DNA of 57,328 nucleotides from positions 1 through 57,328 of the IMG/VR virus record IMGVR_UViG_3300032208_000014; one strand, written 5' to 3'. The notes beneath the pieces are model-generated. The model made no database searches. It saw only the letters and a list, made by a program, of their open reading frames with translations, and was not told where the DNA came from. The DNA is from a virus. Taxonomy: Duplodnaviria > Caudoviricetes. Positions 1-51,813 of the stretch are shown piece by piece; position 1 is the stretch's first letter, and every line of letters starts with the position of its first letter. Made by a program: the position numbers and the translations under genes.

Positions 1-71
1 AATATAAAGTGCCTGTAGGAGTCCCTAGGGGGTCTAAAAAATTTCAATTCTAATTTCGTTTGGAGGTTCAG

Positions 72-542
72 GTGCCGAGGTACAAGGTCATGGAGGAGTG
101 GGATATAGACCCAATGATCGAGTTGGGTGCAGCGATGCACGCGGAGAGTGCCTTTCGTGACTTGGACTATAGTCGTGACAAGTGTTTTCAGTTAGGTGTG
201 CGTTGTATCTCGCACCCTGATCGTTACTTTGGATACTGCGCGTATGAGGGTGACGAGTTGACGGGTATGTTGATTGGTCAGCTGGTGCCTTACTATTTTG
301 GAAATGACCTTCTCGCAAACGACATTCTCTGGTATGTTAGGGAGGACAAGCGTGGTTCGATGATGGGTATTCGTTTGTTGAATGCCTTTAGGGACTGGGC
401 AAAGGAGCGAGGTGCGAGTGAGGTTTGCATTGGCGTTTCGACTGCGTTAGACTTGGATAGGACGCATAAATTGTTGTCACGGATGGGATTTACACATGTT
501 GGTGGCACATTCAAAGAGGCGGTGAAGAATGTTGAAGCTTGA
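72..542 (+). CDS. GNAT family acetyltransferase
   Basis: GNAT-like motif (WYVREDKRGSMMGIRLL...WAKERGA...RMGF). GTG at 72 follows GGAGG, so it is preferred over TTG at 60. Confidence 0.8.
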   Translation: MPRYKVMEEWDIDPMIELGAAMHAESAFRDLDYSRDKCFQLGVRCISHPDRYFGYCAYEGDELTGMLIGQLVPYYFGNDLLANDILWYVREDKRGSMMGIRLLNAFRDWAKERGASEVCIGVSTALDLDRTHKLLSRMGFTHVGGTFKEAVKNVEA

Positions 543-2049
543 TTGGTTGACTCTTGAACCTCGGTTCATTGATCGGAGTGTTTGTTTTTGTACTGGTGGC
601 AGTGATACGAGCGGCGATGAGCCAGACGGCGTAACGTTTACTTCAGGCCCGGGTTACAAACCAGGCGATGGTATTAAGATTAGTTCTGACACGTTGGCTG
701 CAAATTCCACCGATGACACTTATAGAGGGTTTAATACTTCTCCTGCAAGACAAGCTGAGATTTTTGGAACGGGCACTTACAACGATCCGTATGAAACTGG
801 CACGGGGGCTGATCCAAACATTGGATTTGTATCTGGTGTCACGGGCGATGCAGAGTTTACGGGTGCTCCGTCTGTTGCGAGTGCTGCGTTAGCATCATTA
901 GATGATTCTTTCAACTTGTCTCCTGCTGCCTCTCCATCACAGAACCTGACCGCTGAACAAAAGGCTATTGTTGAGACTGCTCTTTCTAGGGGAGAGCAGC
1001 CACCTGACTTTAGTAAGCCAATGACAGTTGCGGAGTTAGCACGCGAAAAAGAACTTGAGGATATTTTCAGTGAAACCAACCTTGACCCAGCAGCAGGTCA
1101 AGAGGAGCAACGCGCAAGAAACGAACAACAAATGGCTGACCGTGCGGTGGCGTTGAACGCAATCAATGACATGCTAGGTATTTCTCGTGCGCAGGATGCA
1201 ACAGCACAGGATGTTCTTGGTGGTGGCATCTCGACTATTACCGGTCCTGTATCTCGTCCGCAGGTGCAGGGTCCGCCTCAAATGCCCGACACGGTATATG
1301 ACTCAGACATGGGGATGGTCGGCTCTGGAACCTCGGCTCCTACTGGAGATTTGTACGGCGGTTATGAGGACGACCCAGCGTATGATGCGGACATTTTTGG
1401 CACACCTCGCTATGCTGGCGGCATTACAGGACTAGACGGCAAGTTGCAGGGCTTTGACATGACAGGTTACACAGGCCGGAGTGACCAGCCTCGTGACCCG
1501 AATGTTTCGAGCATGGGCGATTTTGTGGACACTGCAACAAGAGGCGGGATCCTAGGTAAGGTAACCGATTATGGAATAATCCCGAATGTTGTGTCTCGGC
1601 TCACGGGTCAGACACCTATGGACATGCGCCGCGAGAGTGTCAGAGAGTTCTTTGAAGCGGGTGCGCAGTTTAATCCAGAGTCCGGCAAGATGGAACTGCC
1701 TGCGGGTAAGGGGATGTTGAAGATGAGCGACTCCGGCATGGTTACTTACTCTGGTCAGTCCGATCCAAACTATACGGGCATGTACTCTAACTTGGTTAAT
1801 CCTTCGACAGGTGGAGGCGGAGGCGGCGGTAGCATGACCGATGCGACAGGTGCACCTGTTAATGACCCTTGTCCACCTGGATACAAAATGGTTGATGGTT
1901 CTTGCCAGCCAGACGGCACTAGCACAGATGGTTCACAGGCAGGGGTCGGCAGCACAACCTTCTCGCCTTTCTATACACCGCAGCAGGTTGCTACAATTAA
2001 CCCGTTTGTTCTTCAGCCCTATCCTAATCAAACCATGCCCTTTAGTTAG
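529..2049 (+). CDS. Hypothetical low-complexity acidic G/D/T/P-rich protein, possibly virion-internal
   Basis: 506-aa ORF overlapping the GNAT stop and ending 2 nt before TerL; no recognisable domain. Confidence 0.6.
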   Translation: MLKLDWLTLEPRFIDRSVCFCTGGSDTSGDEPDGVTFTSGPGYKPGDGIKISSDTLAANSTDDTYRGFNTSPARQAEIFGTGTYNDPYETGTGADPNIGFVSGVTGDAEFTGAPSVASAALASLDDSFNLSPAASPSQNLTAEQKAIVETALSRGEQPPDFSKPMTVAELAREKELEDIFSETNLDPAAGQEEQRARNEQQMADRAVALNAINDMLGISRAQDATAQDVLGGGISTITGPVSRPQVQGPPQMPDTVYDSDMGMVGSGTSAPTGDLYGGYEDDPAYDADIFGTPRYAGGITGLDGKLQGFDMTGYTGRSDQPRDPNVSSMGDFVDTATRGGILGKVTDYGIIPNVVSRLTGQTPMDMRRESVREFFEAGAQFNPESGKMELPAGKGMLKMSDSGMVTYSGQSDPNYTGMYSNLVNPSTGGGGGGGSMTDATGAPVNDPCPPGYKMVDGSCQPDGTSTDGSQAGVGSTTFSPFYTPQQVATINPFVLQPYPNQTMPFS

Positions 2050-2051
2050 TC

Positions 2052-3512
2052 ATGAGTCTTGAGACAGTACCAGAGGAAGTAGCACGCGAGATACTTGCTC
2101 TTCAGCAGCAGACGGTAAAGCTGCACATTCGCGAACAAGCGAAAGAAGAGTTCATGCCGTTTGTACACCATGTGTATGACGGCTTTGTTGAGGGAAGACA
2201 CCACCGCGTTATTGCGGAAAAACTGGAACGAGTAGCAAGGGGCGAGTTGAAGAGGCTCATAGTTAATATGCCTCCTCGTCACAGTAAGTCAGAGTTTGCA
2301 TCTTATTTGATGCCTGCTTGGTTCTTGGGTCGCAACTCAAAGCTCAAGATTATTCAAGCAACGCACAACACCGAGCTTGCCGTAAGGTTTGGTCGTAAGG
2401 TTCGTGACTTGTTAGCTACACCAGATTATCGAGTCGTGTTTCCCGATACCAACCTGAAGGCAGACGATAAGGCGGCTGGACGCTGGGGTACGGCAGAAGG
2501 CGGGGAGTATTTCGCGGCAGGGGTGGGCGCGGCGATGACTGGACGCGGTGCGGATTTGTTAATTATTGATGACCCGCACTCGGAACAGGACGCATTGTCG
2601 TCTACAGCATTTGATCATGCTTTTGAGTGGTACTCATCAGGACCACGACAACGTTTGCAGCCAGGTGGTGCGATCATTATTGTTATGACGCGCTGGGGCA
2701 TGAAAGACTTGACAGGTCAGGTTTTGAAGATGCAGGCGCAGGACTCTATGGCTGACCAATGGGAGGTTGTAGAGTTTCCGGCTATTTTGCCAAGTGACAA
2801 GCCTTTGTGGCCTGAGTTCTGGAAAATGGATGATTTGATTAAGGTCAAGGCATCGCTTCCTGTTGGCAAATGGAATGCGCAATGGCAACAAAATCCGACA
2901 GCCGCCGAAGGGGCGATTGTCAAGAAGGAGTGGTGGAATGTCTGGGAAAAGGAAGATATCCCTTCTGTTAAATACATTATTCAATCATACGATACCGCGT
3001 TTAGCAAAAAGGAAACCGCTGACTATTCTGCTATTACCACTTGGGGAGTATTTGAAAACGAAGAGACAGGAGCAGACAATGTTATACTTATGGATGCGCG
3101 AAGAGGTCGCTGGAATTTTCCAGAACTTAAAGGCGTTGCGGCAGAAGAGTATGAATACTGGGAACCAGATATGGTCATCATTGAAGCGAAAGCTTCAGGG
3201 CAACCGCTGACGGACGAGCTGCGTGCGGCGGGTATACCCGTCATGAACTATACACCAAGCAAAGGTCGTGATAAGATAACGCGTATGCACACAGTTGCTC
3301 CGTTGTTTGAGGCGGGTATGGTGTGGGCACCCGAACAGAAGTTCGCAGATGAGGTTATTGAAGAGTGTCTTGCGTTCCCGCATGGGGAGCATGACGACTT
3401 TGTCGATAGCATGACAATGGCACTGATGCGGTTTAGGCAGGGTGGCTTCATCGAACTAGACGGCGAGAACGACAACGAAAATTGGTATCCTAGGAAGAAG
3501 GAGTATTATTGA
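2052..3512 (+). CDS. terL: Terminase large subunit
   Basis: Walker A-like MPPRHSKS, Walker B LLIIDDP, C-terminal RNase H-like nuclease (SYDTA...HDDFVD). Confidence 0.95.
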   Translation: MSLETVPEEVAREILALQQQTVKLHIREQAKEEFMPFVHHVYDGFVEGRHHRVIAEKLERVARGELKRLIVNMPPRHSKSEFASYLMPAWFLGRNSKLKIIQATHNTELAVRFGRKVRDLLATPDYRVVFPDTNLKADDKAAGRWGTAEGGEYFAAGVGAAMTGRGADLLIIDDPHSEQDALSSTAFDHAFEWYSSGPRQRLQPGGAIIIVMTRWGMKDLTGQVLKMQAQDSMADQWEVVEFPAILPSDKPLWPEFWKMDDLIKVKASLPVGKWNAQWQQNPTAAEGAIVKKEWWNVWEKEDIPSVKYIIQSYDTAFSKKETADYSAITTWGVFENEETGADNVILMDARRGRWNFPELKGVAAEEYEYWEPDMVIIEAKASGQPLTDELRAAGIPVMNYTPSKGRDKITRMHTVAPLFEAGMVWAPEQKFADEVIEECLAFPHGEHDDFVDSMTMALMRFRQGGFIELDGENDNENWYPRKKEYY

Positions 3513-3673
3513 TGGCTGACAAGTCAACAAAAAAGAAGCTCAATAAGATTAGTGGGCAACTTAAAAAAGCTTCTAACATGCACGCGGCTCAGTCAAAAAA
3601 GATTGCTACACTCGCTAATTCTTTTAACGGTGGCGGCTTAGTCCGTAAGGGAACATTCAAAGGAACATTCTAA
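3512..3673 (+). CDS. 53-aa basic protein, not in the ORF track
   Basis: Manual translation MADKSTKKKLNKISGQLKKASNMHAAQSKKIATLANSFNGGGLVRKGTFKGTF. TGATG and TAATG overlaps with TerL and portal. Confidence 0.75.
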   Translation: MADKSTKKKLNKISGQLKKASNMHAAQSKKIATLANSFNGGGLVRKGTFKGTF

Positions 3674-6141
3674 TGGTTTTACCTCCACGCCCGATGGGCA
3701 GCTTGACAGACTCTGGTATTGAACCACCAGAGGGAATGGACATCGAAGTGCCGCAGGTAGAAGATTTTGCTGGTGGTGCAGAGGTCATGCAACAGCCTGA
3801 CGGCAGTGCAATGATACAGGCTCTAATGGGCGGCGAGGGAATGGCGGTTGAAGCCGAAGCCTATGACCATAACGCGAACCTAGCCGAAATTATTGATGAT
3901 GCTGTATTGGGTGAAATCTCTAGTGATCTTCGTGCTGCTTATGAAGATGACATGGAGTCAAGAGAAGAGTGGAAAGAAGCATACACAAAAGGTCTTGACC
4001 TTCTAGGTATTCGTTATCAGGAACGCAGTGAGCCATTTCAAGGAGCATCAGGCGTAACTCATCCTCTTATCGCTGAGTCCGTAACACAGTTTCAAGCACA
4101 GTCATACAAGGAACTTCTCCCAGCTGGCGGACCTGTCAAGACACAGGTTATAGGCTCGAAGACCGCCGAGAAAGAAGCACAAGCAAGTCGTGTCAAGAAC
4201 TTCATGAACTATCAGATTACTGAAGTCATGGAAGAATTCGACCCAGATACCGACCAAATGCTTTTCTATCTACCTCTGTCTGGGTCTACCTTTAAGAAAG
4301 TATATTTTGACCCCGCTAAGAATCGAGCGGTATCAGCCTTTGTCCCTGCCGAAGATTTGGTTGTGCCGTACTCCGCAACAGACTTGGCAACAGCCCCACG
4401 AGTGACACATGTTTTGCGCATGGACGACAATCAAGTGCGCAAGATGCAAGTTGCAGGTATCTATAAGGATGTAGAGATAACCGCCACTGACGATGATGAT
4501 GACATTGTTAAGGATAAGGTTGATGAGATTGAGGGTGTAAGTCGTGGATACACCGATGACATACATACAGTTCTTGAGTTTCATGTAGATTTAGACCTAG
4601 AGGGTTTTGAAGACGCAGGACCAGACGGCACGCCAACAGGCATCAAGCTCCCCTACATTGTGACGCTCGACCACGGGTCTGGCGAAATCCTGTCAATCAC
4701 AAGAAACTATGAGCAAGGCGACCAAAGCAAAACTAAGCGTCAATACTTTGTTCATTACAAGTTTTTGCCTGGTCTAGGTTTCTACGGCTTTGGTCTGATC
4801 CACATGATTGGTGGGCTGGGTCGTGCGGCTACAAGTATTCTGCGTCAGTTGATTGATGCTGGTACATTGGCGAACCTGCCATCTGGCTTTAAGGCACGCG
4901 GTATTCGTATTCGTAACGATGATGAGCCTTTGGCACCGGGTGAGTTCCGCGACATTGATGCACCCGGCGGAGACATTCGTAACTCTATCATCCCGCTACC
5001 TTTCAAAGAACCGTCCGGCACACTAGCGTCACTGCTTGGTAGTTTGATTGAAGGTGGACGCAGATTTGTGTCAATCGCAGACCAGCAAATAGGCGACAAC
5101 AAAAGCGGCGACATGCCTGTAGGCACAACAGTTGCGTTGCTTGAGCGTGGCATGAAAGTTATGTCTGCCATTCACAAACGTCTGCACTATGCGCAACGTA
5201 TTGAGTTTCGTTTGTTGGCACAGATTTTGGCACAGAACTTGCCGCCTGTGTATCCATACGAGGTAGCAGGTGCACCGTCCGAAATCAAAGCACAGGATTT
5301 TGATGGACGCGTGGATGTTATTCCAGTATCCGACCCGAACATCTTTTCGATGTCACAGCGTGTTACACTGGCGCAGACACAATTACAGTTGGCGCAGTCA
5401 AATCCACAGATCCATAATCTACACGCTGCGTATAAAAGAATGTATCAAGCCTTGGAAGTGCAGAACATTGATGAAATTCTGCCACCGAAGCCACAGCCAA
5501 AACCCACAGGTCCAAGCATCGAGAACGCGAAAGCGTTGCAGGGTGAAATCATAAATGCGTTTCAAGAACAAAACCATGATGCACACATCATGGCGCATGT
5601 GACATTTATGAAGCTACCAATAGTGCAGACGACTCCAAACATTTATGCTATATTCATGGCTCACCTTCAGGATCACATATCCATGAAGGCGCGGCTTCAG
5701 GTTATGCAACAAGTACAGGCTCAACAGGCTGAAGCACAACAGGCCGCGCTGGCTGCTCAAATGGGAGCAATCGACCCAATGGTTGCTCAACAGGCTATGC
5801 AACAGGCTCAGACGGTAACGCCGGAACAGATAGAGTCCGAAGTGGCTTTGTTGGAGGCACAGTTTACTGAGGAACTAACTCAGATGCTGGCACCCGCACA
5901 AGGTCAACAGGATCCATTAGTTCAAATACGGCAACAAGAACTTGCCATTAAGGCCGCAGAGGCAGAACGCCGTGCACAACAGGATTCAGCGGAACTTGAC
6001 TTAGAACGTCAGAAGCTCCAGCAAAAGGCCATGACTGACGCAGCGCGTATCGAACTCCAAGAGGAGATCGCAGAGGACAGAGCAGACGTTAACAGAGAGC
6101 GCATTCAGACCCAGCGAGAAATGGCGATGAATCGTGGCTAG
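3673..6141 (+). CDS. Portal protein
   Basis: 822 aa after TerL; P22-like portal features (FKKVYFD, GFYGFGLIH) and a Q-rich coiled-coil C-terminus. Confidence 0.9.
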   Translation: MVLPPRPMGSLTDSGIEPPEGMDIEVPQVEDFAGGAEVMQQPDGSAMIQALMGGEGMAVEAEAYDHNANLAEIIDDAVLGEISSDLRAAYEDDMESREEWKEAYTKGLDLLGIRYQERSEPFQGASGVTHPLIAESVTQFQAQSYKELLPAGGPVKTQVIGSKTAEKEAQASRVKNFMNYQITEVMEEFDPDTDQMLFYLPLSGSTFKKVYFDPAKNRAVSAFVPAEDLVVPYSATDLATAPRVTHVLRMDDNQVRKMQVAGIYKDVEITATDDDDDIVKDKVDEIEGVSRGYTDDIHTVLEFHVDLDLEGFEDAGPDGTPTGIKLPYIVTLDHGSGEILSITRNYEQGDQSKTKRQYFVHYKFLPGLGFYGFGLIHMIGGLGRAATSILRQLIDAGTLANLPSGFKARGIRIRNDDEPLAPGEFRDIDAPGGDIRNSIIPLPFKEPSGTLASLLGSLIEGGRRFVSIADQQIGDNKSGDMPVGTTVALLERGMKVMSAIHKRLHYAQRIEFRLLAQILAQNLPPVYPYEVAGAPSEIKAQDFDGRVDVIPVSDPNIFSMSQRVTLAQTQLQLAQSNPQIHNLHAAYKRMYQALEVQNIDEILPPKPQPKPTGPSIENAKALQGEIINAFQEQNHDAHIMAHVTFMKLPIVQTTPNIYAIFMAHLQDHISMKARLQVMQQVQAQQAEAQQAALAAQMGAIDPMVAQQAMQQAQTVTPEQIESEVALLEAQFTEELTQMLAPAQGQQDPLVQIRQQELAIKAAEAERRAQQDSAELDLERQKLQQKAMTDAARIELQEEIAEDRADVNRERIQTQREMAMNRG

Positions 6142-12214: not shown

Positions 12215-12281
12215 GTTGTATAGTTACTTATCCCTGACAGTCGCATGGTGCGGCTGACACTAGCCGAGACAGGAGATTAAA

Positions 12282-12764
12282 TTGGCTAATACAACATTTA
12301 ACGGTCCCGTCCGTTCAGAAAACGGGTTCAAGACAATCATCAAAAACTCCACAACTGGTGCTCTCACCAACGAAATGACTTTGTCTACCTACAGCACTTC
12401 AATCACAATCGCTGCATCTGGTACAGATCATAAAGAATCATCTATTGGTATTCCGTCTAACTTTATTCCTATGGGCGTTGCCATCACAGTAACAAGTGCT
12501 GCGGCTAACAACGTGAACTTGGTTGATATTGGCACAGACGCTGACACAGATGGTTTCGTAGACGGCATCGCTGTTGCTATTAACTCAACAGGGTTCAAAG
12601 GTTTCTTCCCTTGTAACGGTGTACTGGGCATGTCTGGTGGAACAACTACCGCTGCTACAGAGACTGCTGACGAAGTTGAAGTTGTGATTTCCGGCACAGC
12701 AGGTGCTGGTGGCGTTGTTGCTCTGAAGTTCTTTGGTATTGCTTCTGATTCACCAACTGCTTAA
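12282..12764 (+). CDS. Virion structural protein (head fibre / decoration-like)
   Basis: MANTTFNGPVRSENGF N-terminus; TTG start with AGGAG RBS. Confidence 0.7.
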   Translation: MANTTFNGPVRSENGFKTIIKNSTTGALTNEMTLSTYSTSITIAASGTDHKESSIGIPSNFIPMGVAITVTSAAANNVNLVDIGTDADTDGFVDGIAVAINSTGFKGFFPCNGVLGMSGGTTTAATETADEVEVVISGTAGAGGVVALKFFGIASDSPTA

Positions 12765-41612: not shown

Positions 41613-41820
41613 CCTTGTCCCGTGGCCTGTTTGCTAACCAATCCTCAACCTCGGAACGCAACCAACGTGTGGTGCTGTTCTGGTCTGCTTCTGGTCCTAG
41701 CACTACTGGCTTTGGGAAATGATCTTGGTCTACCCATCGGTAGATTGTGGAACGGGCAACGCCCAACCAATCTGTCAGGTCACCCACCTTCAGGTAACGA
41801 TCATCAGAATGGGATGTCAT
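41599..41820 (-). CDS. AlpA / excisionase-like HTH protein
   Basis: LGVARSTIYRWV...FPKPV...RWLRSEVEDWL. Confidence 0.85.
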   Translation of the reverse strand: MTSHSDDRYLKVGDLTDWLGVARSTIYRWVDQDHFPKPVVLGPEADQNSTTRWLRSEVEDWLANRPRDKVDAD

Positions 41821-43336
41821 TTTCTATCTCCTTCTTTGGAATATGAACTTCGTTATCGTCAAACTCTGGAACAAACCAAACGCGGACATTTTGCCATCGC
41901 CCTGTCTTGTCATCCTTGAGCTTGTAGTATGTGTTACAGTCACCACCGTTGTTTAAAATCTTCAGTCGTTCCTGTATCTGTGGCCTGTTAAGCTGCACGA
42001 AGTTTCGTGATCGTAAAAACTCTTGCAACCCCTTCATCGTAAAGAACGTCAAATCGTTCTCTGTCCACGGCTTACCAAGCCGTAGTTCTTCTGGTGCTCT
42101 CGCACGAATCCTGCTTGTACAAAAGATTTCCAAAAGTTCTTCAAACTGACCTGTGGTAGTCAGTTCTTTCGGCACCTCAATCGCCGTAGCAGTAGACATC
42201 AGATTGTTTACAAGCTGTTGCCAATCCGCTGGCTTCATGGTCGGAGGCATAAAATCAATTTGCTCCATACACGCACGTTGAAACTGCAACGGCATTTGCA
42301 GTTGTTCAGTAGACAACTCCAACCGCTGACCATTGACATCCAAGAAGTACAGGCGCGGGTCAGACTTCAGAATAGTAAGACCGCCCATAGATGGAGCCGC
42401 AGCGGAACCGCCCACACCATGTTCCATCGTCCGGCATTGGTCACGATTACAATAACTAGACATCGGCTCTTCCTTACATTTGTAGCCGTACTTGTCTTTT
42501 TCGATTGACTTCTGCAACGTGACCACTTCGTCCGCTGGCATCGGTGGTTTACATATCTTCTGGTTCCACGACTCTAGCTTCTTTTTCCAGTCGTCTGGAT
42601 ACTTCTTGCGTAAGAACACACCTGTATGAAACATAGCGTTGTTCCGCATACCCTGTGGTATGCCCATCAATACAAGGTTCTTGATACATGGTATCAGGCC
42701 GTCAAACTCATCGCTCTTAGTCTCAAACTTCAAAGCGTTCAACGCATCCAATGTAGTGCGTTTCTTTTCAATAACCTTCAAGAAATCAAGTAACTCAAGT
42801 TCTTCCCCCTTATCATCAAAAGCATATCGCACAGTGTTCTCGCTATCGAAGTATGGCAGGTTGATAAAGTTACCAACATCGCCACGGTCAGCGAGGATCT
42901 GATCTTGTTTTGGAAATATTTCACAGCCAGAAAAGCCGAGCACCGCAGAGAACTCGGTCAGACAGTCGCGCATGTCTACAGCCCTAATCCACTCTTTTGT
43001 GAACAGGTAGAGATGTGCACCACCAGATTTAGAACGACAAACTACAAACGGTATCTTGAGTTGCTTGCACTTCTTGGCTATCTCGGCATGGTCGATAGGG
43101 TACTTGTCAATGTCCAATACACCGAACTTACACATATTCTTATCATTAATAGGAATTGATCCCACACCTTTTTCACCATTGATATGTTGTGCAATTAACT
43201 CCTTTGTAAGCGGCTGTTTGACGATAAAACTTTTAGCTTCTGTTTTACCATTACGGCGTTGCTGTCCGATTGTGGTTTGACCGTGGGCGGCATCCGATCC
43301 CTCGAATGCCGCCGCAAAACGATCAACAATATCCAT
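41804..43336 (-). CDS. Primase-polymerase (AEP) with PriCT-like domain
   Basis: LDID, RSKSGGAHLYLF, EIFPKQ, NFINLPY, G.RNNAMF. Confidence 0.8.
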   Translation of the reverse strand: MDIVDRFAAAFEGSDAAHGQTTIGQQRRNGKTEAKSFIVKQPLTKELIAQHINGEKGVGSIPINDKNMCKFGVLDIDKYPIDHAEIAKKCKQLKIPFVVCRSKSGGAHLYLFTKEWIRAVDMRDCLTEFSAVLGFSGCEIFPKQDQILADRGDVGNFINLPYFDSENTVRYAFDDKGEELELLDFLKVIEKKRTTLDALNALKFETKSDEFDGLIPCIKNLVLMGIPQGMRNNAMFHTGVFLRKKYPDDWKKKLESWNQKICKPPMPADEVVTLQKSIEKDKYGYKCKEEPMSSYCNRDQCRTMEHGVGGSAAAPSMGGLTILKSDPRLYFLDVNGQRLELSTEQLQMPLQFQRACMEQIDFMPPTMKPADWQQLVNNLMSTATAIEVPKELTTTGQFEELLEIFCTSRIRARAPEELRLGKPWTENDLTFFTMKGLQEFLRSRNFVQLNRPQIQERLKILNNGGDCNTYYKLKDDKTGRWQNVRVWFVPEFDDNEVHIPKKEIENDIPF

Positions 43337-44814: not shown

Positions 44815-46272
44815 ATGGAAGTCAACTACAAATTTAAAACGACACCATATGTACACCAGAAGGAAGCCCTAGACCGTAGTATTCACAAGAACCTTTACGG
44901 GTTCTTTATGGAGATGGGGACTGGTAAGTCGAAGGTGTTAATAGATACCATTGCGTATCTTAGCGACACAAATCAGATTAACTTTGCTTTTATTATCGCG
45001 CCCAAGGGCGTGTACCGTAATTGGGTAAACAAAGAAATACCTGACCACTTTTGTGAAGATGTCCCCCATCATGTTTGCTACTGGCAAGCCAAAGACACTA
45101 AGGCTTATCGCAAAGAGCTAGAACAATTCTTCATGAATACCGAACCAGGTGTCAAGATATTTGTTATGAATGTCGAAGCATTTAGTTCAGGCAAAGGCAA
45201 GAAGATCGGGGAATGGATTGCCCATAAATTTGGCTGTCAAGGATTGATTGCTATTGACGAATCCACAACTATTAAAACCCCCACTGCCAAACGCACGAAG
45301 GTGCTTACAAAGATAGCGTCCAGCTTCAAGTATCGCAGGCTGCTGACAGGTTCGCCTGTAACTAAATCGCCTATGGATCTTTATACTCAATGTGAGTTTC
45401 TTGAACCTCGGCTCTTGGGTTATGATTCCTACTATGCGTTTCGGGGTCGGTACGCAATCCTGCGCAAACAGAAGATGGGCATTAAAGAGTTTCAAACGAT
45501 AGTCGGGTTTCGTAACTTAGAGGAGTTAACAGACAAGATTGCTCCGTTTACTTATCGGGTTCTGAAAAAAGATTGTCTGGACCTGCCGGATAAAAACTAC
45601 ACCGTGCGCTATGTGGATATGACGCTAGAACAGGTGCGCATGTACAAGGACATTCAGAAAGAGGCGATGGTGTTGCTGGAAAACGGCGACATCGTGACAG
45701 CTATGCAGGTGATGACGCAGCTTCTGCGGCTCCAGCAAATACTTTCGGGACACCTGAAGACAGATGATGGCGATATAGTTGAGGTGGACACTAACCGCAT
45801 ACATGCGCTGCTTGAATGTGTTGAAGAAGTTTCGGGTAAGATAATCATCTGGTCGCGCTTCCGTTACGATATCAAGAAAATTTTTACTGCCCTGCAACGT
45901 CAATTCGGGAACAATTCTGTGGTATGCTATTATGGAGACACAAGTGACGAAGATCGTCAGAAAGCGATACATCAGTTCCAGAACGGTGACGCTCGATTCT
46001 TTGTAGCTAATCCTGCAACAGCTGGTTATGGCCTCACGCTGACTGCGGCAAACACCGTGATATATTATGCTAATGACTTTAATCTTGAAACTCGGATCCA
46101 GTCAGAAGATAGATGTCACCGAATAGGTCAGAAGAACGCGGTCACATACATAGACCTGATTACAGAAAAAAGCATTGATGAAAAAATTGTGAAGTCGTTA
46201 CGAAACAAGATTGACATCGGGGCGAAGGTACTCGGAGAGGAGGCGAGAGAATGGCTACAGATCCAAAAATAA
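44815..46272 (+). CDS. SNF2-family (SF2) helicase
   Basis: MEMGTGKS, IDES, LTGSP, GYGLTL, QSEDRCHRIGQ. Confidence 0.9.
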   Translation: MEVNYKFKTTPYVHQKEALDRSIHKNLYGFFMEMGTGKSKVLIDTIAYLSDTNQINFAFIIAPKGVYRNWVNKEIPDHFCEDVPHHVCYWQAKDTKAYRKELEQFFMNTEPGVKIFVMNVEAFSSGKGKKIGEWIAHKFGCQGLIAIDESTTIKTPTAKRTKVLTKIASSFKYRRLLTGSPVTKSPMDLYTQCEFLEPRLLGYDSYYAFRGRYAILRKQKMGIKEFQTIVGFRNLEELTDKIAPFTYRVLKKDCLDLPDKNYTVRYVDMTLEQVRMYKDIQKEAMVLLENGDIVTAMQVMTQLLRLQQILSGHLKTDDGDIVEVDTNRIHALLECVEEVSGKIIIWSRFRYDIKKIFTALQRQFGNNSVVCYYGDTSDEDRQKAIHQFQNGDARFFVANPATAGYGLTLTAANTVIYYANDFNLETRIQSEDRCHRIGQKNAVTYIDLITEKSIDEKIVKSLRNKIDIGAKVLGEEAREWLQIQK

Positions 46273-46475: not shown

Positions 46476-46659
46476 CGGGAAGATGCAGCAAGATTTAAAA
46501 ATGGGACTTTGCCCAAGATGCCGGACAAATATGCCACCCGTAAATGTACACGGGCACACGCAGTGCACTGTATGCCACTTGGTTATAGACGAGTGCTGTC
46601 AAGGCGAAACTGCATCTTGCAACTTTGACACAACAGACAAGGCTGGGTCGCTGTCGTGA
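46447..46659 (+). CDS. Zinc-ribbon protein
   Basis: CPRC...HGHTQCTVC...CC. Confidence 0.65.
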   Translation: MIMSQILQGDGKMQQDLKMGLCPRCRTNMPPVNVHGHTQCTVCHLVIDECCQGETASCNFDTTDKAGSLS

Positions 46660-47108
46660 AACTGGAGGTTGTCCCTGTAACTACACGCGAGGCGAATGAG
46701 TTTGTTGCTAATTTTCACAGACACAACAAACCAACTAACGGCGGAAAGTTTTCAATCGGGGCAATTTACGGTGATGAACTTGTCGGAGTTGCTATAGTCG
46801 GGCGACCCGTGGCAAGGATGCTCGATGATGGGTTGACTGTTGAGGTTACCAGAGTTTGCGTTGTAGATCACGCACCCAAAAACACTTGCAGTTTTTTGTA
46901 CGGACGGTGCTGGCGCATCTGGCAACAGATGGGCGGCAAGCGCATGATTACATATACTTTGCAGGAAGAGTCGGGGTCTTCGCTTCGGGGTGCTGGCTGG
47001 AAAATAGTCGGGGAAGTAAAACCCACAGAGCGGGGCTGGGACAGGGATAACCGCAAACGAAATTGGCAACCAATCTACGGACAGATGAAGTTCAGGTGGG
47101 AAGCATGA
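46656..47108 (+). CDS. Mom-like / XF1762-family GNAT-fold protein
   Basis: FV..FHRH, GVAIVGRPVAR, EVTR, CSFLYG, ITYT...ESG.SLRGAGW. Confidence 0.75.
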   Translation: MKLEVVPVTTREANEFVANFHRHNKPTNGGKFSIGAIYGDELVGVAIVGRPVARMLDDGLTVEVTRVCVVDHAPKNTCSFLYGRCWRIWQQMGGKRMITYTLQEESGSSLRGAGWKIVGEVKPTERGWDRDNRKRNWQPIYGQMKFRWEA

Positions 47109-47887
47109 TTTTATCTTGGTGGTCGGCAGGCGTGACCAGCGCGGTAGCAACTAAACTTGCAATCGACAAATACGGGAAAGACAGAGTGCTGCCCGTCTAC
47201 TTCCATATCGACTCGGCTCACCCAGACAACGAGCGGTTCATTCGGGAGTGCGAGGAGTGGTATGGTCGGGACATCATGATCACCAAGTCGCACAAGCATA
47301 ACAACCAGTTCGAGGTCATCGAGAAAGACAAGTATGTAAACGGTCCTGGGGGTGCACGCTGCACTCTGGTTTTGAAGAAACGGGTTCGGGAGCGGATTGA
47401 ACGGGAGATGGAGTATGAGGCACAGGTCTTCGGGTTCGAGTTTTCCAAGAAAGAAGTCAATCGGGCGGTGCGGTTCAAGGAACAATATCCTGGGTCAAAG
47501 CCCATCTTTCCGCTCATCGAGAAGAAGCTGACCAAGCCGGAGTGTCTGTATTATCTTGAGGCGGCTGGCATCGAGCGACCAGAAATGTATAAGCTTGGCT
47601 ACGGCAACAATAACTGCATCGGTTGCGTAAAAGGCGGCAAAGGGTACTGGAATAAAATCCGCAAAGACTTCCCCGAATATTTTGACCGCATGGCTGCAGC
47701 AGAGCGGCTGGTTGGTAACTCATGCCTGCGTGGTGTGTATCTGGACGAGCTAGATCCAAACTCTGGACACAAGCAGAATTATGTCATGCCTGACTGCGGA
47801 AACTTTTGTGAAATAGAATTTGCAGATATCATGCACAAAGATATAGACTTAATAATGAAGCAACCAGAACAGTTGAGTTTATTCTAA
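47105..47887 (+). CDS. PAPS-reductase-like (PP-loop) protein with Cys clusters
   Basis: WWSAGVTSA PP-loop, CT..LK, FPLI, NNCIGCVKGG, CGNFC; ATGA coupling at 47105. Confidence 0.7.
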   Translation: MILSWWSAGVTSAVATKLAIDKYGKDRVLPVYFHIDSAHPDNERFIRECEEWYGRDIMITKSHKHNNQFEVIEKDKYVNGPGGARCTLVLKKRVRERIEREMEYEAQVFGFEFSKKEVNRAVRFKEQYPGSKPIFPLIEKKLTKPECLYYLEAAGIERPEMYKLGYGNNNCIGCVKGGKGYWNKIRKDFPEYFDRMAAAERLVGNSCLRGVYLDELDPNSGHKQNYVMPDCGNFCEIEFADIMHKDIDLIMKQPEQLSLF

Positions 47888-48093
47888 TGTATGAGGCGGC
47901 ATTACTTGCCTGCTTGATGGGCAACCCAAAACACTGCATGGAAGCAACGGATATCAGAGGACCTTATCCAACGGCTGAACAGTGCGAAGAACGATTGGTC
48001 GAAATGACTCGCGACACAATAAAAATGTGGAAGGAGTTTGGTGCGCCTATCTTAATTGTCCGCACAGGTTGTAAAGAAAGAAAAAGTATTTGA
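47887..48093 (+). CDS. Small Cys-containing protein
   Basis: Hydrophobic N-terminus, GPYPTAEQC motif. Confidence 0.6.
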   Translation: MYEAALLACLMGNPKHCMEATDIRGPYPTAEQCEERLVEMTRDTIKMWKEFGAPILIVRTGCKERKSI

Positions 48094-48118
48094 CTTGTTA
48101 AATCCTGGATATTATAAA
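48090..48118 (+). promoter_or_regulatory. Sigma70-type promoter
   Basis: TTGACT-17 nt-TATAAA, upstream of AGGAGG and the ATG at 48145. Confidence 0.75.
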
Positions 48119-48144
48119 CAAGTATAAATAGTCAGGAGGACAAT

Positions 48145-48327
48145 ATGACAATCAAACATGAAATCCGTAAAATGAAAGAAACTCGTGAAGATGAGAGCGG
48201 TATCACCTATCTATATAGCTTTGGCAGATACAAGTATCTCACATATAAAGAGGCCAAAGAGATAGAAGAGAAGTATCACATTTGTAAGTCTCAACTTTGG
48301 CAAGGTGAAAAGTTGATTTCATATTAA
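48145..48327 (+). CDS. 60-aa monocistronic hypothetical protein
   Basis: Own promoter, AGGAGG RBS and downstream terminator. Confidence 0.7.
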   Translation: MTIKHEIRKMKETREDESGITYLYSFGRYKYLTYKEAKEIEEKYHICKSQLWQGEKLISY

Positions 48328-48435
48328 AGAAAAGGGGCGGTTCTTCCGCCCCTTTCTCGTATAGTGTTTTTTGGATTTAACGACCCGCATCTTGAACCTC
48401 GGATCTCGGATCTTTATCGGGTTACGTTTTGCCAT
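48319..48435 (-). CDS. ArfA-like 38-aa peptide, not in the ORF track
   Basis: Manual translation MAKRNPIKIRDPRFKMRVVKSKKHYTRKGRKNRPFSLI; DP.F..RV.K.KK..Y.RKG resembles the ArfA core. Confidence 0.6.
   Translation of the reverse strand: MAKRNPIKIRDPRFKMRVVKSKKHYTRKGRKNRPFSLI
48326..48356. terminator. Bidirectional intrinsic terminator inside the ArfA-like ORF
   Basis: AAAGGGGCGG-TTCTT-CCGCCCCTTT stem; on the minus strand it is followed by TTTTCTTT. Confidence 0.85.
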
Positions 48436-48601
48436 ATTCCTTTCGGATAAGCACCGCCAACTGCCGTGCTATTGTCCGCTCCTCTTCCTCTGCTGCGCTG
48501 CGCAACAAATTATAGGCATCAATCGGGACAGCCACATTTCGGAACTGTGCCTTATTCTCAACAGGGGGTCTACCCCTTTTTACTGCTTGAACCGCTTCCA
48601 T
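48422..48601 (-). CDS. 59-aa ribbon-helix-helix-like DNA-binding protein, not in the ORF track
   Basis: Manual translation MEAVQAVKRGRPPVENKAQFRNVAVPIDAYNLLRSAAEEEERTIARQLAVLIRKEYGKT; ATG directly after the upstream TAA. Confidence 0.7.
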   Translation of the reverse strand: MEAVQAVKRGRPPVENKAQFRNVAVPIDAYNLLRSAAEEEERTIARQLAVLIRKEYGKT

Positions 48602-49163
48602 TTATGCCGCCTTTCTTGGTCTGCCGCGCTTTTTCTTTTTGTTTGCGTGGTACTTTTCCCGAGCCTTCCGATTTCTTTCCAGTCGGGCTTTTTCCTCTTG
48701 GTCGTATTCCGTTCCGAACAGGGCGTTCAACCCTGGCTCTAGCTCCCTTGCTAGTTGAGCGCGAGGGATGTTCCGAGCCTTCCCCCGTGTCTCGCGATGC
48801 GGATCCACATAAATCATCTTCTCTTGGTCGTACACGAGATCCATTTCGTCTATCATGTTCACTAAGTTTCTGATCATCCGCAGGTCGCAATCCTCCAGAA
48901 TGAACCTGACGCTTTTTCCGCGCAGCAGGTTTAGTGTGTCGTTTATGACATTCAGTTGTGTTGACATCCTTGTGCCTCCTTACTTCTACTTCGATATAAT
49001 ACCCATGATGACCATCGCCTCTCCTCGGCACGCTGGCTTGCTGGTCCAGCTGGTCAATCACGGCCTCCAACTCGGTGGGCTTACAGACCACCTCCTTCAC
49101 AATCGCTTTCCTGTTTGAGTACAGCGTAATTGTGAAATCTAATATTTTATTTTCGTTCTTCAT
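48570..49163 (-). CDS. Hypothetical protein; first ~65 aa plausible, remainder overlaps the next gene
   Basis: Start overlaps the upstream gene; no stop until 48570. Confidence 0.45.
   Translation of the reverse strand: MKNENKILDFTITLYSNRKAIVKEVVCKPTELEAVIDQLDQQASVPRRGDGHHGYYIEVEVRRHKDVNTTECHKRHTKPAARKKRQVHSGGLRPADDQKLSEHDRRNGSRVRPREDDLCGSASRDTGEGSEHPSRSTSKGARARVERPVRNGIRPRGKSPTGKKSEGSGKVPRKQKEKARQTKKGGINGSGSSSKKG
48602..48967 (-). CDS. Protein with MCP N-terminal-like peptide and C-terminal AT-hook
   Basis: AAGGAGG RBS; IPRAQLARELEPGLNALFGTEY; KKRGRPRK. Confidence 0.75.
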   Translation of the reverse strand: MSTQLNVINDTLNLLRGKSVRFILEDCDLRMIRNLVNMIDEMDLVYDQEKMIYVDPHRETRGKARNIPRAQLARELEPGLNALFGTEYDQEEKARLERNRKAREKYHANKKKKRGRPRKAA

Positions 49164-49356
49164 GTTTGTAGCTTGTTATTACACAATCATCAAGAACTAT
49201 TTTTTGATTACGAGGCAACTCATAGAGCCGCCACTGGTTTAGTTGAACATTACATTCTTGCACAGACTGGAAAGTTTTTGGATAAAATTCAGTCGTGCAC
49301 TTACTGTCGCCGCCAGCATAAACTGTGCAGACGAGTGCCATCGCTTTAACAATCAT
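49147..49356 (-). CDS. Small Cys-containing protein
   Basis: Hydrophobic N-terminus, FQSVQEC motif. Confidence 0.6.
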   Translation of the reverse strand: MIVKAMALVCTVYAGGDSKCTTEFYPKTFQSVQECNVQLNQWRLYELPRNQKIVLDDCVITSYKHEERK

Positions 49357-49582
49357 AATTATCGTCAGCCTCTGTATAACTTATAATTTTTAAATTTATG
49401 ACTTCGCTGTCCGTGGGGTGCAGTTCAGGATCTTCTTCAATCAGCTCAACTGCCTTCCCCATCGTTTCCGCCTTGACAATGAAATAGTGCGTACCATGAA
49501 CGATATATTCTTGGGCTACTAAAAATTCTTTCATAAAGTGCGCCGCCGTTGCATCGTGCGTTTTGTTATCGGACTGCCCCAA
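49346..49582 (-). CDS. Small hypothetical protein
   Basis: Part of an overlapping minus-strand gene chain. Confidence 0.55.
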   Translation of the reverse strand: MGQSDNKTHDATAAHFMKEFLVAQEYIVHGTHYFIVKAETMGKAVELIEEDPELHPTDSEVINLKIISYTEADDNYDC

Positions 49583-49701
49583 TCATTCTTCCGCCACTTC
49601 GCACCAACATCCTTGCGCAGCGGGGAGGCATACAGCTCTTCCCGCTTGCGCTTCAGATAGTTTTCAAATTCTTGGACGGTCATTTCAGCCGCTGTTTTCA
49701 T
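49531..49701 (-). CDS. Small hypothetical protein
   Basis: AAGGAG before ATG 49701 (MKTAAEMTVQEF). Confidence 0.5.
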   Translation of the reverse strand: MKTAAEMTVQEFENYLKRKREELYASPLRKDVGAKWRKNDWGSPITKRTMQRRRTL

Positions 49702-50008
49702 TTTCGCGCTCCTTGTCATAGTCCATCCATGATTTGACGATGGGGTCATCTTTTTTGATGTCCACAAAAATTTCCATCCTTACGGTATCGTCACTCCCAC
49801 AGTACGGGTCTTCCTTACTGTGTTCTTTCAACTTAGCCTTCCAATGACCATACGGAGCAAAGTGATCAAAAAAATCTGCCACATCTTCAAACGTGAGATA
49901 ATACATTCCGCACTCATGGTCGCGACAACTAGCTTTAATCACCTCAGTCGCACCGCCACGCCTTTGCGTAATTATCGCTTGATATGTGCTATGTGGTTCA
50001 TACGGCAT
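49685..50008 (-). CDS. Hypothetical protein
   Basis: GGAGAGG before ATG; in the gene chain. Confidence 0.6.
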   Translation of the reverse strand: MPYEPHSTYQAIITQRRGGATEVIKASCRDHECGMYYLTFEDVADFFDHFAPYGHWKAKLKEHSKEDPYCGSDDTVRMEIFVDIKKDDPIVKSWMDYDKERENENSG

Positions 50009-50578: not shown

Positions 50579-50684
50579 TTTTACCTCCGTAAATTTGAAA
50601 CCAATGGTCAGTGCAGTACGCCCGATTTCCATCGAGCGCATCCGCCTTTTTATCGCATTTATCGCATTTTCTGATACTAAGCAT
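50481..50684 (-). CDS. Small zinc-finger-like protein
   Basis: CDKC...YCTDHW; GAGGGG RBS; 3' part overlaps the next gene. Confidence 0.5.
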   Translation of the reverse strand: MLSIRKCDKCDKKADALDGNRAYCTDHWFQIYGGKNGKSQGMADGYGRGRDGHEPRSVGREAWYVVR

Positions 50685-51813
50685 TCATCCCCCTCATCAA
50701 GTGACAGATAACATCAACCGTCCATCCATTACCAAGCATACGATACCGCTGGGTATTTGACACATGATTTGTGTAATTTTCTGGAACGGTCTGTAAACGC
50801 TCACATTCTAAAGGCGTAAGCTTACGCCATTGAAGCTGGTCAATGTCAGCCACAATGCTGTCCTTATATATGGTGGACAGACAATTCGACTTCTCATCTT
50901 CTCGCACCTCGACCCTTGATTTGAGGGGAATGGACTTGTCGTTATCTTTGCGCTTGCCATTCTCATCGAGCCTGCGTTTCACGATCCTCGCACCTCGAAG
51001 CAACACTTTTGGTTCAAGATTGCCACCAGATGCCGCGCACAAACTTGGGGCTTTGCCGTCTGGATCATAAACCCTGCGATTATAATCGTGACCCTTCAAG
51101 TCTGCGTGCCCAGCCAATATCAAGCCTGTGCCATCCAACTCCATGTCGAACACAAGCTGTCTGCGATTTTTCTGAAAATATGACTTCAGATTACCGCCCT
51201 TGAAATAGTTCGCATCTATGCAATGCGACTTGTCACGGTCAGTCCAGCCATCTTCGAGAATATCTTTGAGCATGATATTTCGGTTGCGTGGTGCACCCTC
51301 GACAGGGATGTTTGTCCAATACAGGCGGTCACGATTTTGCGCTGACACCAGATTAGAATTTATCCTGATAGGTTCGACCCCAAGCTGACTGGAAATTACA
51401 TCCTGATATTCCTGTTTCATATTAACATTCTCAAGCAGGAAATATTTTGGCTTCAACTCCCTCAACAGGCGCACATATTCAAAAAACAATTTACTGCGTG
51501 GGTCGTCAAAGTTCAGTTGCTTGCCAGCAAACGAAAACCCCTGACAGGGCGAACCGCCAATCAATATGTCTATCGTGTGTCGAAAGAAACCCTTTTCGAG
51601 GTCAACACCATTATGAGCGACACACAAACGCCCATCCTTGGTTTTAAGTTTGGTCACATCGCCCATGTGTATCGTGTCAGGATAATTGGCCTTCGCAACT
51701 TGGATTGCATATTTGTCAATTTCTGACGCGAAATAATTTTCGACCTTGAAGCCGCACCGCTCAAGAGCGATGCGACCACAAGACATTCCATCAAATAAAC
51801 TAAGAACGTTCAT
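50677..51813 (-). CDS. C5 DNA cytosine methyltransferase
   Basis: LSLFDG, GGSPCQGFS, LLENV, QNRDRLYW, ECERLQ, LGNGW. Confidence 0.9.
   Translation of the reverse strand: MNVLSLFDGMSCGRIALERCGFKVENYFASEIDKYAIQVAKANYPDTIHMGDVTKLKTKDGRLCVAHNGVDLEKGFFRHTIDILIGGSPCQGFSFAGKQLNFDDPRSKLFFEYVRLLRELKPKYFLLENVNMKQEYQDVISSQLGVEPIRINSNLVSAQNRDRLYWTNIPVEGAPRNRNIMLKDILEDGWTDRDKSHCIDANYFKGGNLKSYFQKNRRQLVFDMELDGTGLILAGHADLKGHDYNRRVYDPDGKAPSLCAASGGNLEPKVLLRGARIVKRRLDENGKRKDNDKSIPLKSRVEVREDEKSNCLSTIYKDSIVADIDQLQWRKLTPLECERLQTVPENYTNHVSNTQRYRMLGNGWTVDVICHLMRGMNA

Follow-up and report, generated by a model that had tools for sequence, protein, structure and literature searches.

The window analysed here is the whole of one virus record (IMG/VR IMGVR_UViG_3300032208_000014; 57,328 bases, estimated 98% complete). 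On its minus strand lies a 38-residue open reading frame (ORF) whose last codons also form a G+C-rich hairpin. In the window and in the closest relatives of this ORF, the hairpin and its U tract lie inside the reading frame, and no stop codon comes before them. We favour, with slightly better than even confidence, the reading that this marine tailed phage uses the ORF to make a minimal ArfA-like factor for ribosome rescue, and makes it from a non-stop mRNA, so that the factor is sensitive to transfer-messenger RNA (tmRNA). This reading draws on sequence comparison and on analogy with the rescue genes arfA and brfA. An earlier note on this DNA had proposed a rescue factor with tmRNA-sensing control. 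The proposal gained comparative support from ArfA homology, from the hairpin and from the missing earlier stop, while the mechanism itself is one that we infer.

To establish what the ORF encodes, we compared it with a profile built from 121 family proteins. The window ORF scored 51.1 bits (E 7.5e-15), and the runner-up among the 1668 reading frames of the window reached E 1.3. For 12 distinct close relatives, the ratio of nonsynonymous to synonymous divergence (dN/dS) across 26 core codons was ~0.23; in the 18 codons 5' of the hairpin it was ~0.15. Because the ORF was the sole scorer against the profile and dN/dS was ~0.23, it is by these measures a conserved coding gene and a member of the DUF7230 family, and the conservation for which the earlier note had called was found. 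That the conserved feature is the RNA hairpin alone, with an ORF standing over it by chance, is extremely improbable. A Shine-Dalgarno-like AAGGA does sit only 2 nucleotides (nt) from the ATG, but the ORF matches a family of hundreds of proteins, the codons ahead of the hairpin show the low dN/dS given above, and the start overlaps the upstream gene here and in relatives.

The family is represented by Pfam DUF7230 (PF23876), phrog_2701 and phrog_20887, all without an assigned function in those databases; the window peptide matched phrog_20887 at E 0.014. It carries the DUF7230 core motif RNP[IV]AKx[LV]R[TS]PxF[KR]x[RQ]VV with a two-residue deletion (NPI--KIRDPRFKMRVV), seen also as NPI--KIR against the family consensus KRNPIAKALRTPxFKxRVVKSKKxYxRK. 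Residues P6, R10, P12, F14, K15, V18, V19 and K20 were invariant in an alignment of eight family sequences. PF23876 was matched at E<=1 by 9 of 16 close relatives and by 44 of 45 members of the wider family, which was searched with an alignment headed by a 43-residue homologue (locus L021) and with degenerate DNA patterns. A search with a profile of eight phage sequences returned at least 591 proteins at E<=1, the majority with PF23876, and relatives were encoded on at least 337 viral contigs and 47 bacterial-genome contigs. The first relatives met were hypothetical proteins of T4-like Acinetobacter phages, adjacent to rIIA and matching DUF7230 with E down to 1e-13. The genes of phages Acj9 (L001) and Ac42 (L002) lie between rIIA and a putative glutathionylspermidine synthase gene, and have an ordinary stop with a terminator after it. 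A tblastn search recovered 61 Acinetobacter phage records. Among GenBank phages, megablast of window positions 47000-50000 gave no match, and neither did tblastn with the proteins P0078 and P0244, for which low-complexity filtering is a possible cause.

Likeness to ArfA was seen in several comparisons. In a search of the PDB with the peptide, the six matches listed at E<=10 were all ArfA chains (E ~0.8). With hhalign, the closest subfamily (16 sequences) aligned with ArfA at 86.6% (P 4.4e-6, 41 columns), the wider family (43 members, two bridging ones left out) at 79.5% (P 1.5e-5), and the peptide alone with P 2.5e-4; the ArfA alignment used comprised 8 enterobacterial and 3 other sequences and is low in diversity. 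The Pfam ArfA model (PF03889) was matched at E<=1 by 12 of 45 wider-family members (best 4.5e-7) and by 6 of the 16 close relatives (best 0.16). Two sequences bridge the families: P0102 shows KKGRGSYSRK (KKGRGSY) in an otherwise DUF7230 sequence, and L076, a 38-residue ArfA found in one of the class-sample genomes (PF03889 E 9.7e-9), is DUF7230-like with a GKGS insert. The E. coli ArfA core quoted in the earlier note corresponds to residues 14-44 of ArfA in NC_000913.3, and the shared patterns DP.F..RV.K.KK and Y.RKG are visible in the HMMER alignment. Taken together, these alignments indicate that DUF7230 and ArfA are homologous across some 36-41 columns.

Peptide residues 4-20 align with the segment of ArfA that contacts release factor RF2: F14 falls on ArfA F25, and M16-V19 on Q27-E30. 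In the available parts of two reports, F25 is described as a hydrophobic anchor and Q27-E30 as a strand, both docking on RF2 (PMC8012679, PMC6299226). The phenylalanine at F14 was invariant in the eight-sequence family alignment and in that of the 16 close relatives. Residues 20-35 form a Lys/Arg-rich tail, with 9 Lys/Arg in the 16 residues K20-F35. This tail would correspond to the part of ArfA that lies in the empty mRNA channel, less three residues of KGKGS; no individual residue of an ArfA-type tail is essential, according to the portion of PMC6299226 consulted.

We next considered the hairpin. Translation and gene order confirmed the earlier description of the ORF as the last gene of its minus-strand operon, and of a hairpin, GGGGCGG-AAGAA-CCGCCCC followed by UUUUCUUU, inside the ORF ahead of its TGA; stem and stop are 12 nt apart (48322..48333, minus). 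A-U pairs can lengthen the hairpin to 48330-48356, and an A tract lies 5' of it. A 66-nt stretch around it folded at -20.5 kcal/mol (z-score -5.1), and none of 200 shuffles was as stable. With 11 pairs, 7 of them G-C, this was the best terminator-like site between positions 46000 and 52000. Intrinsic termination would be expected within 48322..48333, which would place the TGA past the end of the transcript.

The arrangement was retained throughout the closest subfamily. Six representatives at E<=0.001 came out of a search of the full library with the peptide. Five of them, 44-83 residues long in total, keep ...Y[TS]RKGRxxRPF and then diverge fully. Scanning viral contigs for KKxYxRKGRxxRPF identified 21 loci: all 21 carried GGGGCG[GC]-5 nt-[CG]CGCCCC, and none had a stop 5' of the hairpin. 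Measured from the TTY codon next after the stem, their stops lay 24-210 nt downstream, the window tail being the shortest, and the tails after RPF (3 to about 70 residues) could not be aligned. An alignment of 17 sequences, 16 of them distinct, showed a ten-pair helix with every one of its 160 cells paired. Compensatory changes were seen at the innermost pair (GC to CG in two sequences) and at another pair (GC to AU in one). Synonymous divergence was 0.29 in the hairpin codons vs 0.85 in the 18 codons upstream.

A scan by pattern is blind to relatives with an early stop, and a second scan was therefore anchored on the ribbon-helix-helix (RHH) gene that lies upstream. Homologues of this syntenic anchor (56-67% identity) precede the peptide gene in 15 loci. 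With an alignment as query, the scan found 67 loci, 15 of them with a family ORF, and all 15 ORFs read through the hairpin; an earlier scan with a single RHH protein had found just 2 distant loci, neither with the peptide gene. The start of the family ORF overlaps the RHH gene in relatives as in the window, where the last 14 nt are shared. Such an arrangement is rare among other genes. A strict terminator at least 8 nt before the stop was present in 0 of 78 window ORFs of at least 100 residues; ORFs of that length in viral loci had one in 7 of 621 cases. In the subfamily, 20 of the 21 loci had a strict terminator at the hairpin.

Several observations weigh against the favoured reading, and the first group concerns homology. 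PF03889 was the sole Pfam match of the peptide and fell below threshold (E 0.36; 10.8 bits vs a cut-off of 25.5), and the PF23876 model did not list the peptide at E<=10. Every ArfA alignment showed a three-residue gap at the GKG of KGKGS, in agreement with the absence of a GKGS segment noticed earlier, and two residues are deleted from the helix before DP. ArfA A18, which we take to be important, has no conserved counterpart in the peptide. In the PDB, the best match of the eight-sequence family profile was not ArfA but a type-Z uS14. The peptide could on that account be a mimic or derivative of the uS14 N-terminus, acting on the 30S head and not with a release factor, since residues 1-19 of B. 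subtilis-type uS14 (MAKKSMIAKQQRTPKFKVQ) outranked the ArfA chains in the profile search, with E 0.0025. We regard this as very unlikely: the match spans only 19 residues of biased composition, and the peptide's own PDB matches were to ArfA chains alone. Moreover, the 45 wider-family members matched only DUF7230, ArfA and T7SS_EccA1_N in Pfam at E<=1, with no Ribosomal_S14, and the long-type uS14 of five genomes lacks such an N-terminus. The ArfA similarity predicted by the earlier note thus holds at profile level and fails at the Pfam threshold, and a likeness of profiles, not formal Pfam membership, is what these comparisons support. Because the curated ArfA threshold was failed and KGKGS is absent, we file the peptide as a DUF7230 member and ArfA-like variant, not as ArfA proper.

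The second group concerns the hairpin. Four of the ten stem pairs are forced by the amino-acid pattern used in the search; the other six fall on free or half-free codon positions. Many syntenic relatives have a short U tract (UUUCAU), and with the window stop so close to the stem, a read-through product would be nearly the same peptide. On the plus strand, the hairpin comes a few bases after the stop of a convergent gene (48145..48327), whose end the peptide ORF overlaps by 9 nt, so that the hairpin is placed as a bidirectional terminator would be. It also serves that gene, and its conservation alone is therefore no proof of a role in the peptide ORF. In the wider family, the strict rule found a terminator before the stop in the window only, among 89 distinct ORFs, but it overlooks hairpins with a bulge or a long loop, as in viral contig L158. 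Most wider-family members examined have ordinary stops, and in several a downstream gene overlaps. The expectation that homologues keep a terminator before the stop was therefore borne out in the closest subfamily and not in the wider family. Because the window alone among the 89 has a terminator before its stop, non-stop control appears to be a trait of the subfamily.

These findings give some weight to an incidental overlap, in which a functional DUF7230 protein is made from read-through or complete transcripts with no tmRNA sensing, and the hairpin does no more than end two convergent operons as their bidirectional terminator. The position of the hairpin exactly between convergent genes with an A tract ahead, the nearness of the TGA, the short U tracts of many relatives, and the ordinary stops or overlapping downstream genes of most wider-family members would all suit this explanation. 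We nevertheless consider it unlikely. None of the 15 loci anchored on the neighbouring gene had a stop before the hairpin, the tails beyond it are unconserved, and the base rate of such an arrangement is ~1%. The arrangement was also found in other settings: in a second gene context (6 loci), the next gene lies on the same strand and overlaps the tail in a different frame. L158, a viral contig of 57.8 kb, has a different hairpin sequence, with the stop 19 nt past the stem, and in the chromosomal DUF7230 gene L259 an intrinsic terminator lies within the reading frame and is followed by the stop after 39 nt. In two further chromosomal members (L255, L256; like L259, from the class sample), a very long hairpin encloses the stop codon. 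From their sequences, the arrangements in L255/L256 and L259 appear arfA-like, and canonical ArfA genes L075 and L077 show the arrangement too, L077 with its terminator inside the ORF. In the marine MKKQNPIAKDL... group, folded tails gave only weak, A+U-rich hairpins. A relaxed hairpin screen (dG <= -12) was dropped as uninformative: the stop lay inside or after a hairpin in 101 of 150 controls vs 49 of 89 family ORFs. The operon of L158 is unlike that of the window, with a 1332-residue ORF (6-4004, plus) followed by the peptide gene through a TGATG stop-start overlap.

If the ORF does encode a rescue factor, its control could work as follows. Transcription would stop at the hairpin, or RNase III would cut there, leaving most mRNAs without a stop codon. 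Ribosomes would then stall at the mRNA 3' end, where tmRNA-SmpB would tag the peptide for degradation. Only if trans-translation were saturated, as might happen through infection or through a defence system that cleaves much mRNA, would a product of roughly 30-36 residues escape. The escaped peptide would occupy vacant mRNA channels, recruit a release factor and free stalled ribosomes for phage protein synthesis. We infer these steps from the analogous arfA and brfA: as reviewed in the consulted part of PMC8012679, the arfA stem-loop leads to termination or RNase III cleavage, and brfA has a rho-independent terminator before its stop.

Chromosomal members of the family were examined as well. 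Those of Pelagibacterales, SAR86 and a Parasulfuritortus genome lie amid housekeeping genes (LptC/LptB, TatC/UbiB, IspD), and ArfA scored over its cut-off in none of five genomes that carry such members. One sample of 300 genomes held ArfA in 3 and DUF7230 in 7, with both in none, counts too small to show exclusion. The chromosomal setting and the lack of ArfA in the five genomes fit a cellular rescue role for DUF7230, short of proof. A separate branch, in Hydrogenophilales/Thiobacillus-type genomes (L026-L069) and in viral loci L160/L161, keeps RRPRNPVAKAVRTPAFKxxVVPDKR and has a long acidic tail in place of the basic one; judging from its sequence, the N-terminal module of this branch may have a second use.

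The peptide might instead be an antagonist that fills the mRNA channel, or binds RF2 but does not activate it, and so damps host rescue or termination or shields ribosomes. Absence of the GKG insert and of two residues of the N-terminal helix would agree with this, as would the acidic-tail branches, which exist and therefore indicate that the conserved N-terminal module can work without channel insertion. Such a role is nonetheless improbable, given the indirect indications that short basic members sit amid housekeeping genes on Pelagibacterales and SAR86 chromosomes, that the five genomes with such members yielded no ArfA over the cut-off, and that the RF2-contact phenylalanine and strand appear to be retained.

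Under the favoured reading of a rescue factor, the peptide can be set beside known systems. Like ArfA (PF03889; E. coli YhdL), it is a small basic peptide with the alignable core N-x-I...DP-x-F-[KR]-x-R-V-x-K-x-K-K...Y-x-R-K-G-[KR], and in its gene, too, the hairpin lies inside the ORF ahead of the stop, with unconserved residues after it. It differs in having 38 residues vs 72 (mature ~55), without the first ~10 N-terminal residues, the two residues of the helix, or the GKG in KGKGS. The window gene is also phage-encoded, its rescue function is a prediction, and its hairpin resembles an intrinsic bidirectional terminator, whereas that of E. coli arfA is a long RNase III stem. BrfA of Bacillus subtilis is alike in design: in the available part of PMC8012679, it is RF2-dependent and made from a non-stop mRNA with a rho-independent terminator before the stop, and is held down by trans-translation. 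It has 72 codons (~62 mature) and a Gram-positive host, and we liken it by regulatory design alone and claim no homology.

By description, ArfT of Francisella tularensis resembles the peptide in being a rescue factor of 40 residues whose C-terminal stretch is basic (PMC6299226, in part). According to the same excerpt, ArfT differs in having no hydrophobic residue at the F25 position, in acting with RF1 or RF2, in a regulation that is not that of ArfA, and in a KKGGSTNKK motif that is absent from the window peptide. Phage-borne genes with an ArfA domain have been annotated as well, in pelagiphage HTVC027P (gp30; PMC12753301) and Citromicrobium phage RXM (g10; PMC8953757). These are annotations only, likened here by description, and the consulted parts of the two papers, which deal with genomes and transcriptomes, report neither a hairpin nor a non-stop arrangement nor any test. 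In the library searched, DUF7230 was named in no paper, 'ArfA-like' occurred only in work on ArfT, and the texts on ArfA and phages, as far as they were available, described no hairpin-in-ORF arrangement for a phage gene.

The features of the locus are collected in Table 1. The gene at the convergent end beside the peptide gene differs among relatives. In several viral loci, 200-400 nt separate the RHH gene from the peptide gene. Contigs from runs X19 and X20, which belong to a relative less than 90% alike, have 236 extra letters between the two genes (window 48426-48432).

Table 1. Features of the peptide locus in the window
Feature	Position	Strand	Remarks
38-residue ORF, DUF7230 / ArfA-like small-protein family	48319..48435	minus	translation MAKRNPIKIRDPRFKMRVVKSKKHYTRKGRKNRPFSLI
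G+C hairpin GGGGCGG-AAGAA-CCGCCCC within the ORF	48334..48352	minus	codons K28-P34 (28-34)
GC stem, 5' arm GGGGCGG	48352-48346	minus	
Loop AAGAA	48345-48341	minus	
Stem, 3' arm CCGCCCC	48340-48334	minus	
U tract UUUUCUUU	48333-48326	minus	
AAUA between U tract and stop	48325-48322	minus	
In-frame stop TGA (UGA in RNA)	48321-48319	minus	within last codons of convergent plus-strand gene
RHH gene, 59 residues, 5' of peptide gene	48422..48601	minus	RHH_5, E 1.2e-5
121-residue gene, same operon, basic AT-hook-like C-terminus	48602..48967	minus	syntenic homologues exist
Convergent 60-residue gene, strong Shine-Dalgarno AGGAGGA	48145..48327	plus	9-nt overlap with peptide ORF

The window encodes genes of a tailed phage, among them a terminase, a family-A DNA polymerase, UvrD-type and SNF2 helicases, a primase, and a pair of Mom-like and PAPS-reductase-like proteins. 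Near-identical DNA was present in 18 marine or seawater runs from at least six studies, with no RNA run among those listed, and the phage is common in seawater. Two metatranscriptome-labelled contigs derive from a relative less than 90% alike. A scan with ARAGORN detected neither tRNA nor tmRNA genes in the window. The sole Rfam match above the gathering score was a Mu-gpT-DE RNA (12232-12284, plus; 65 bits, E 7.5e-13), which points to a Mu-like head gene module. The Mom-family protein (E 5.7e-8) adjoins the PAPS-reductase-like protein (E 6.8e-6) at 46656-47887 (plus), and a cytosine-methyltransferase-like ORF lies at 50677-51813; the three may form a DNA-modification module. The primase-like protein (41804-43336, minus) hits PF22548, which is the TOTE conflict system's AEP domain, at E 1e-18.

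If the favoured reading is correct, DUF7230 would gain a function, that of an ArfA-like rescue factor open to direct test. A sequence of about 35 residues, with no KGKGS, would then suffice, which would be useful for structural work on RF2 activation without a stop codon. Phages would share the rule of arfA and brfA, by which a back-up factor is made only when tmRNA is overwhelmed, and ribosome stalling would be a pressure during infection of marine bacteria. More tentatively, and with some doubt on our part, DUF7230 as a whole might be a widespread, unrecognised branch of release-factor-dependent rescue. It could do the work of ArfA in streamlined marine bacteria and in candidate phyla, captured by phages hundreds of times, with the acidic-tail branches as other release-factor modulators. 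The proposed non-stop switch of this marine phage lineage may then sense the exhaustion of trans-translation, for example after abortive-infection defences that cleave mRNA or tRNA, and would renew the supply of ribosomes, as a translational counter-defence that measures how far it is needed.

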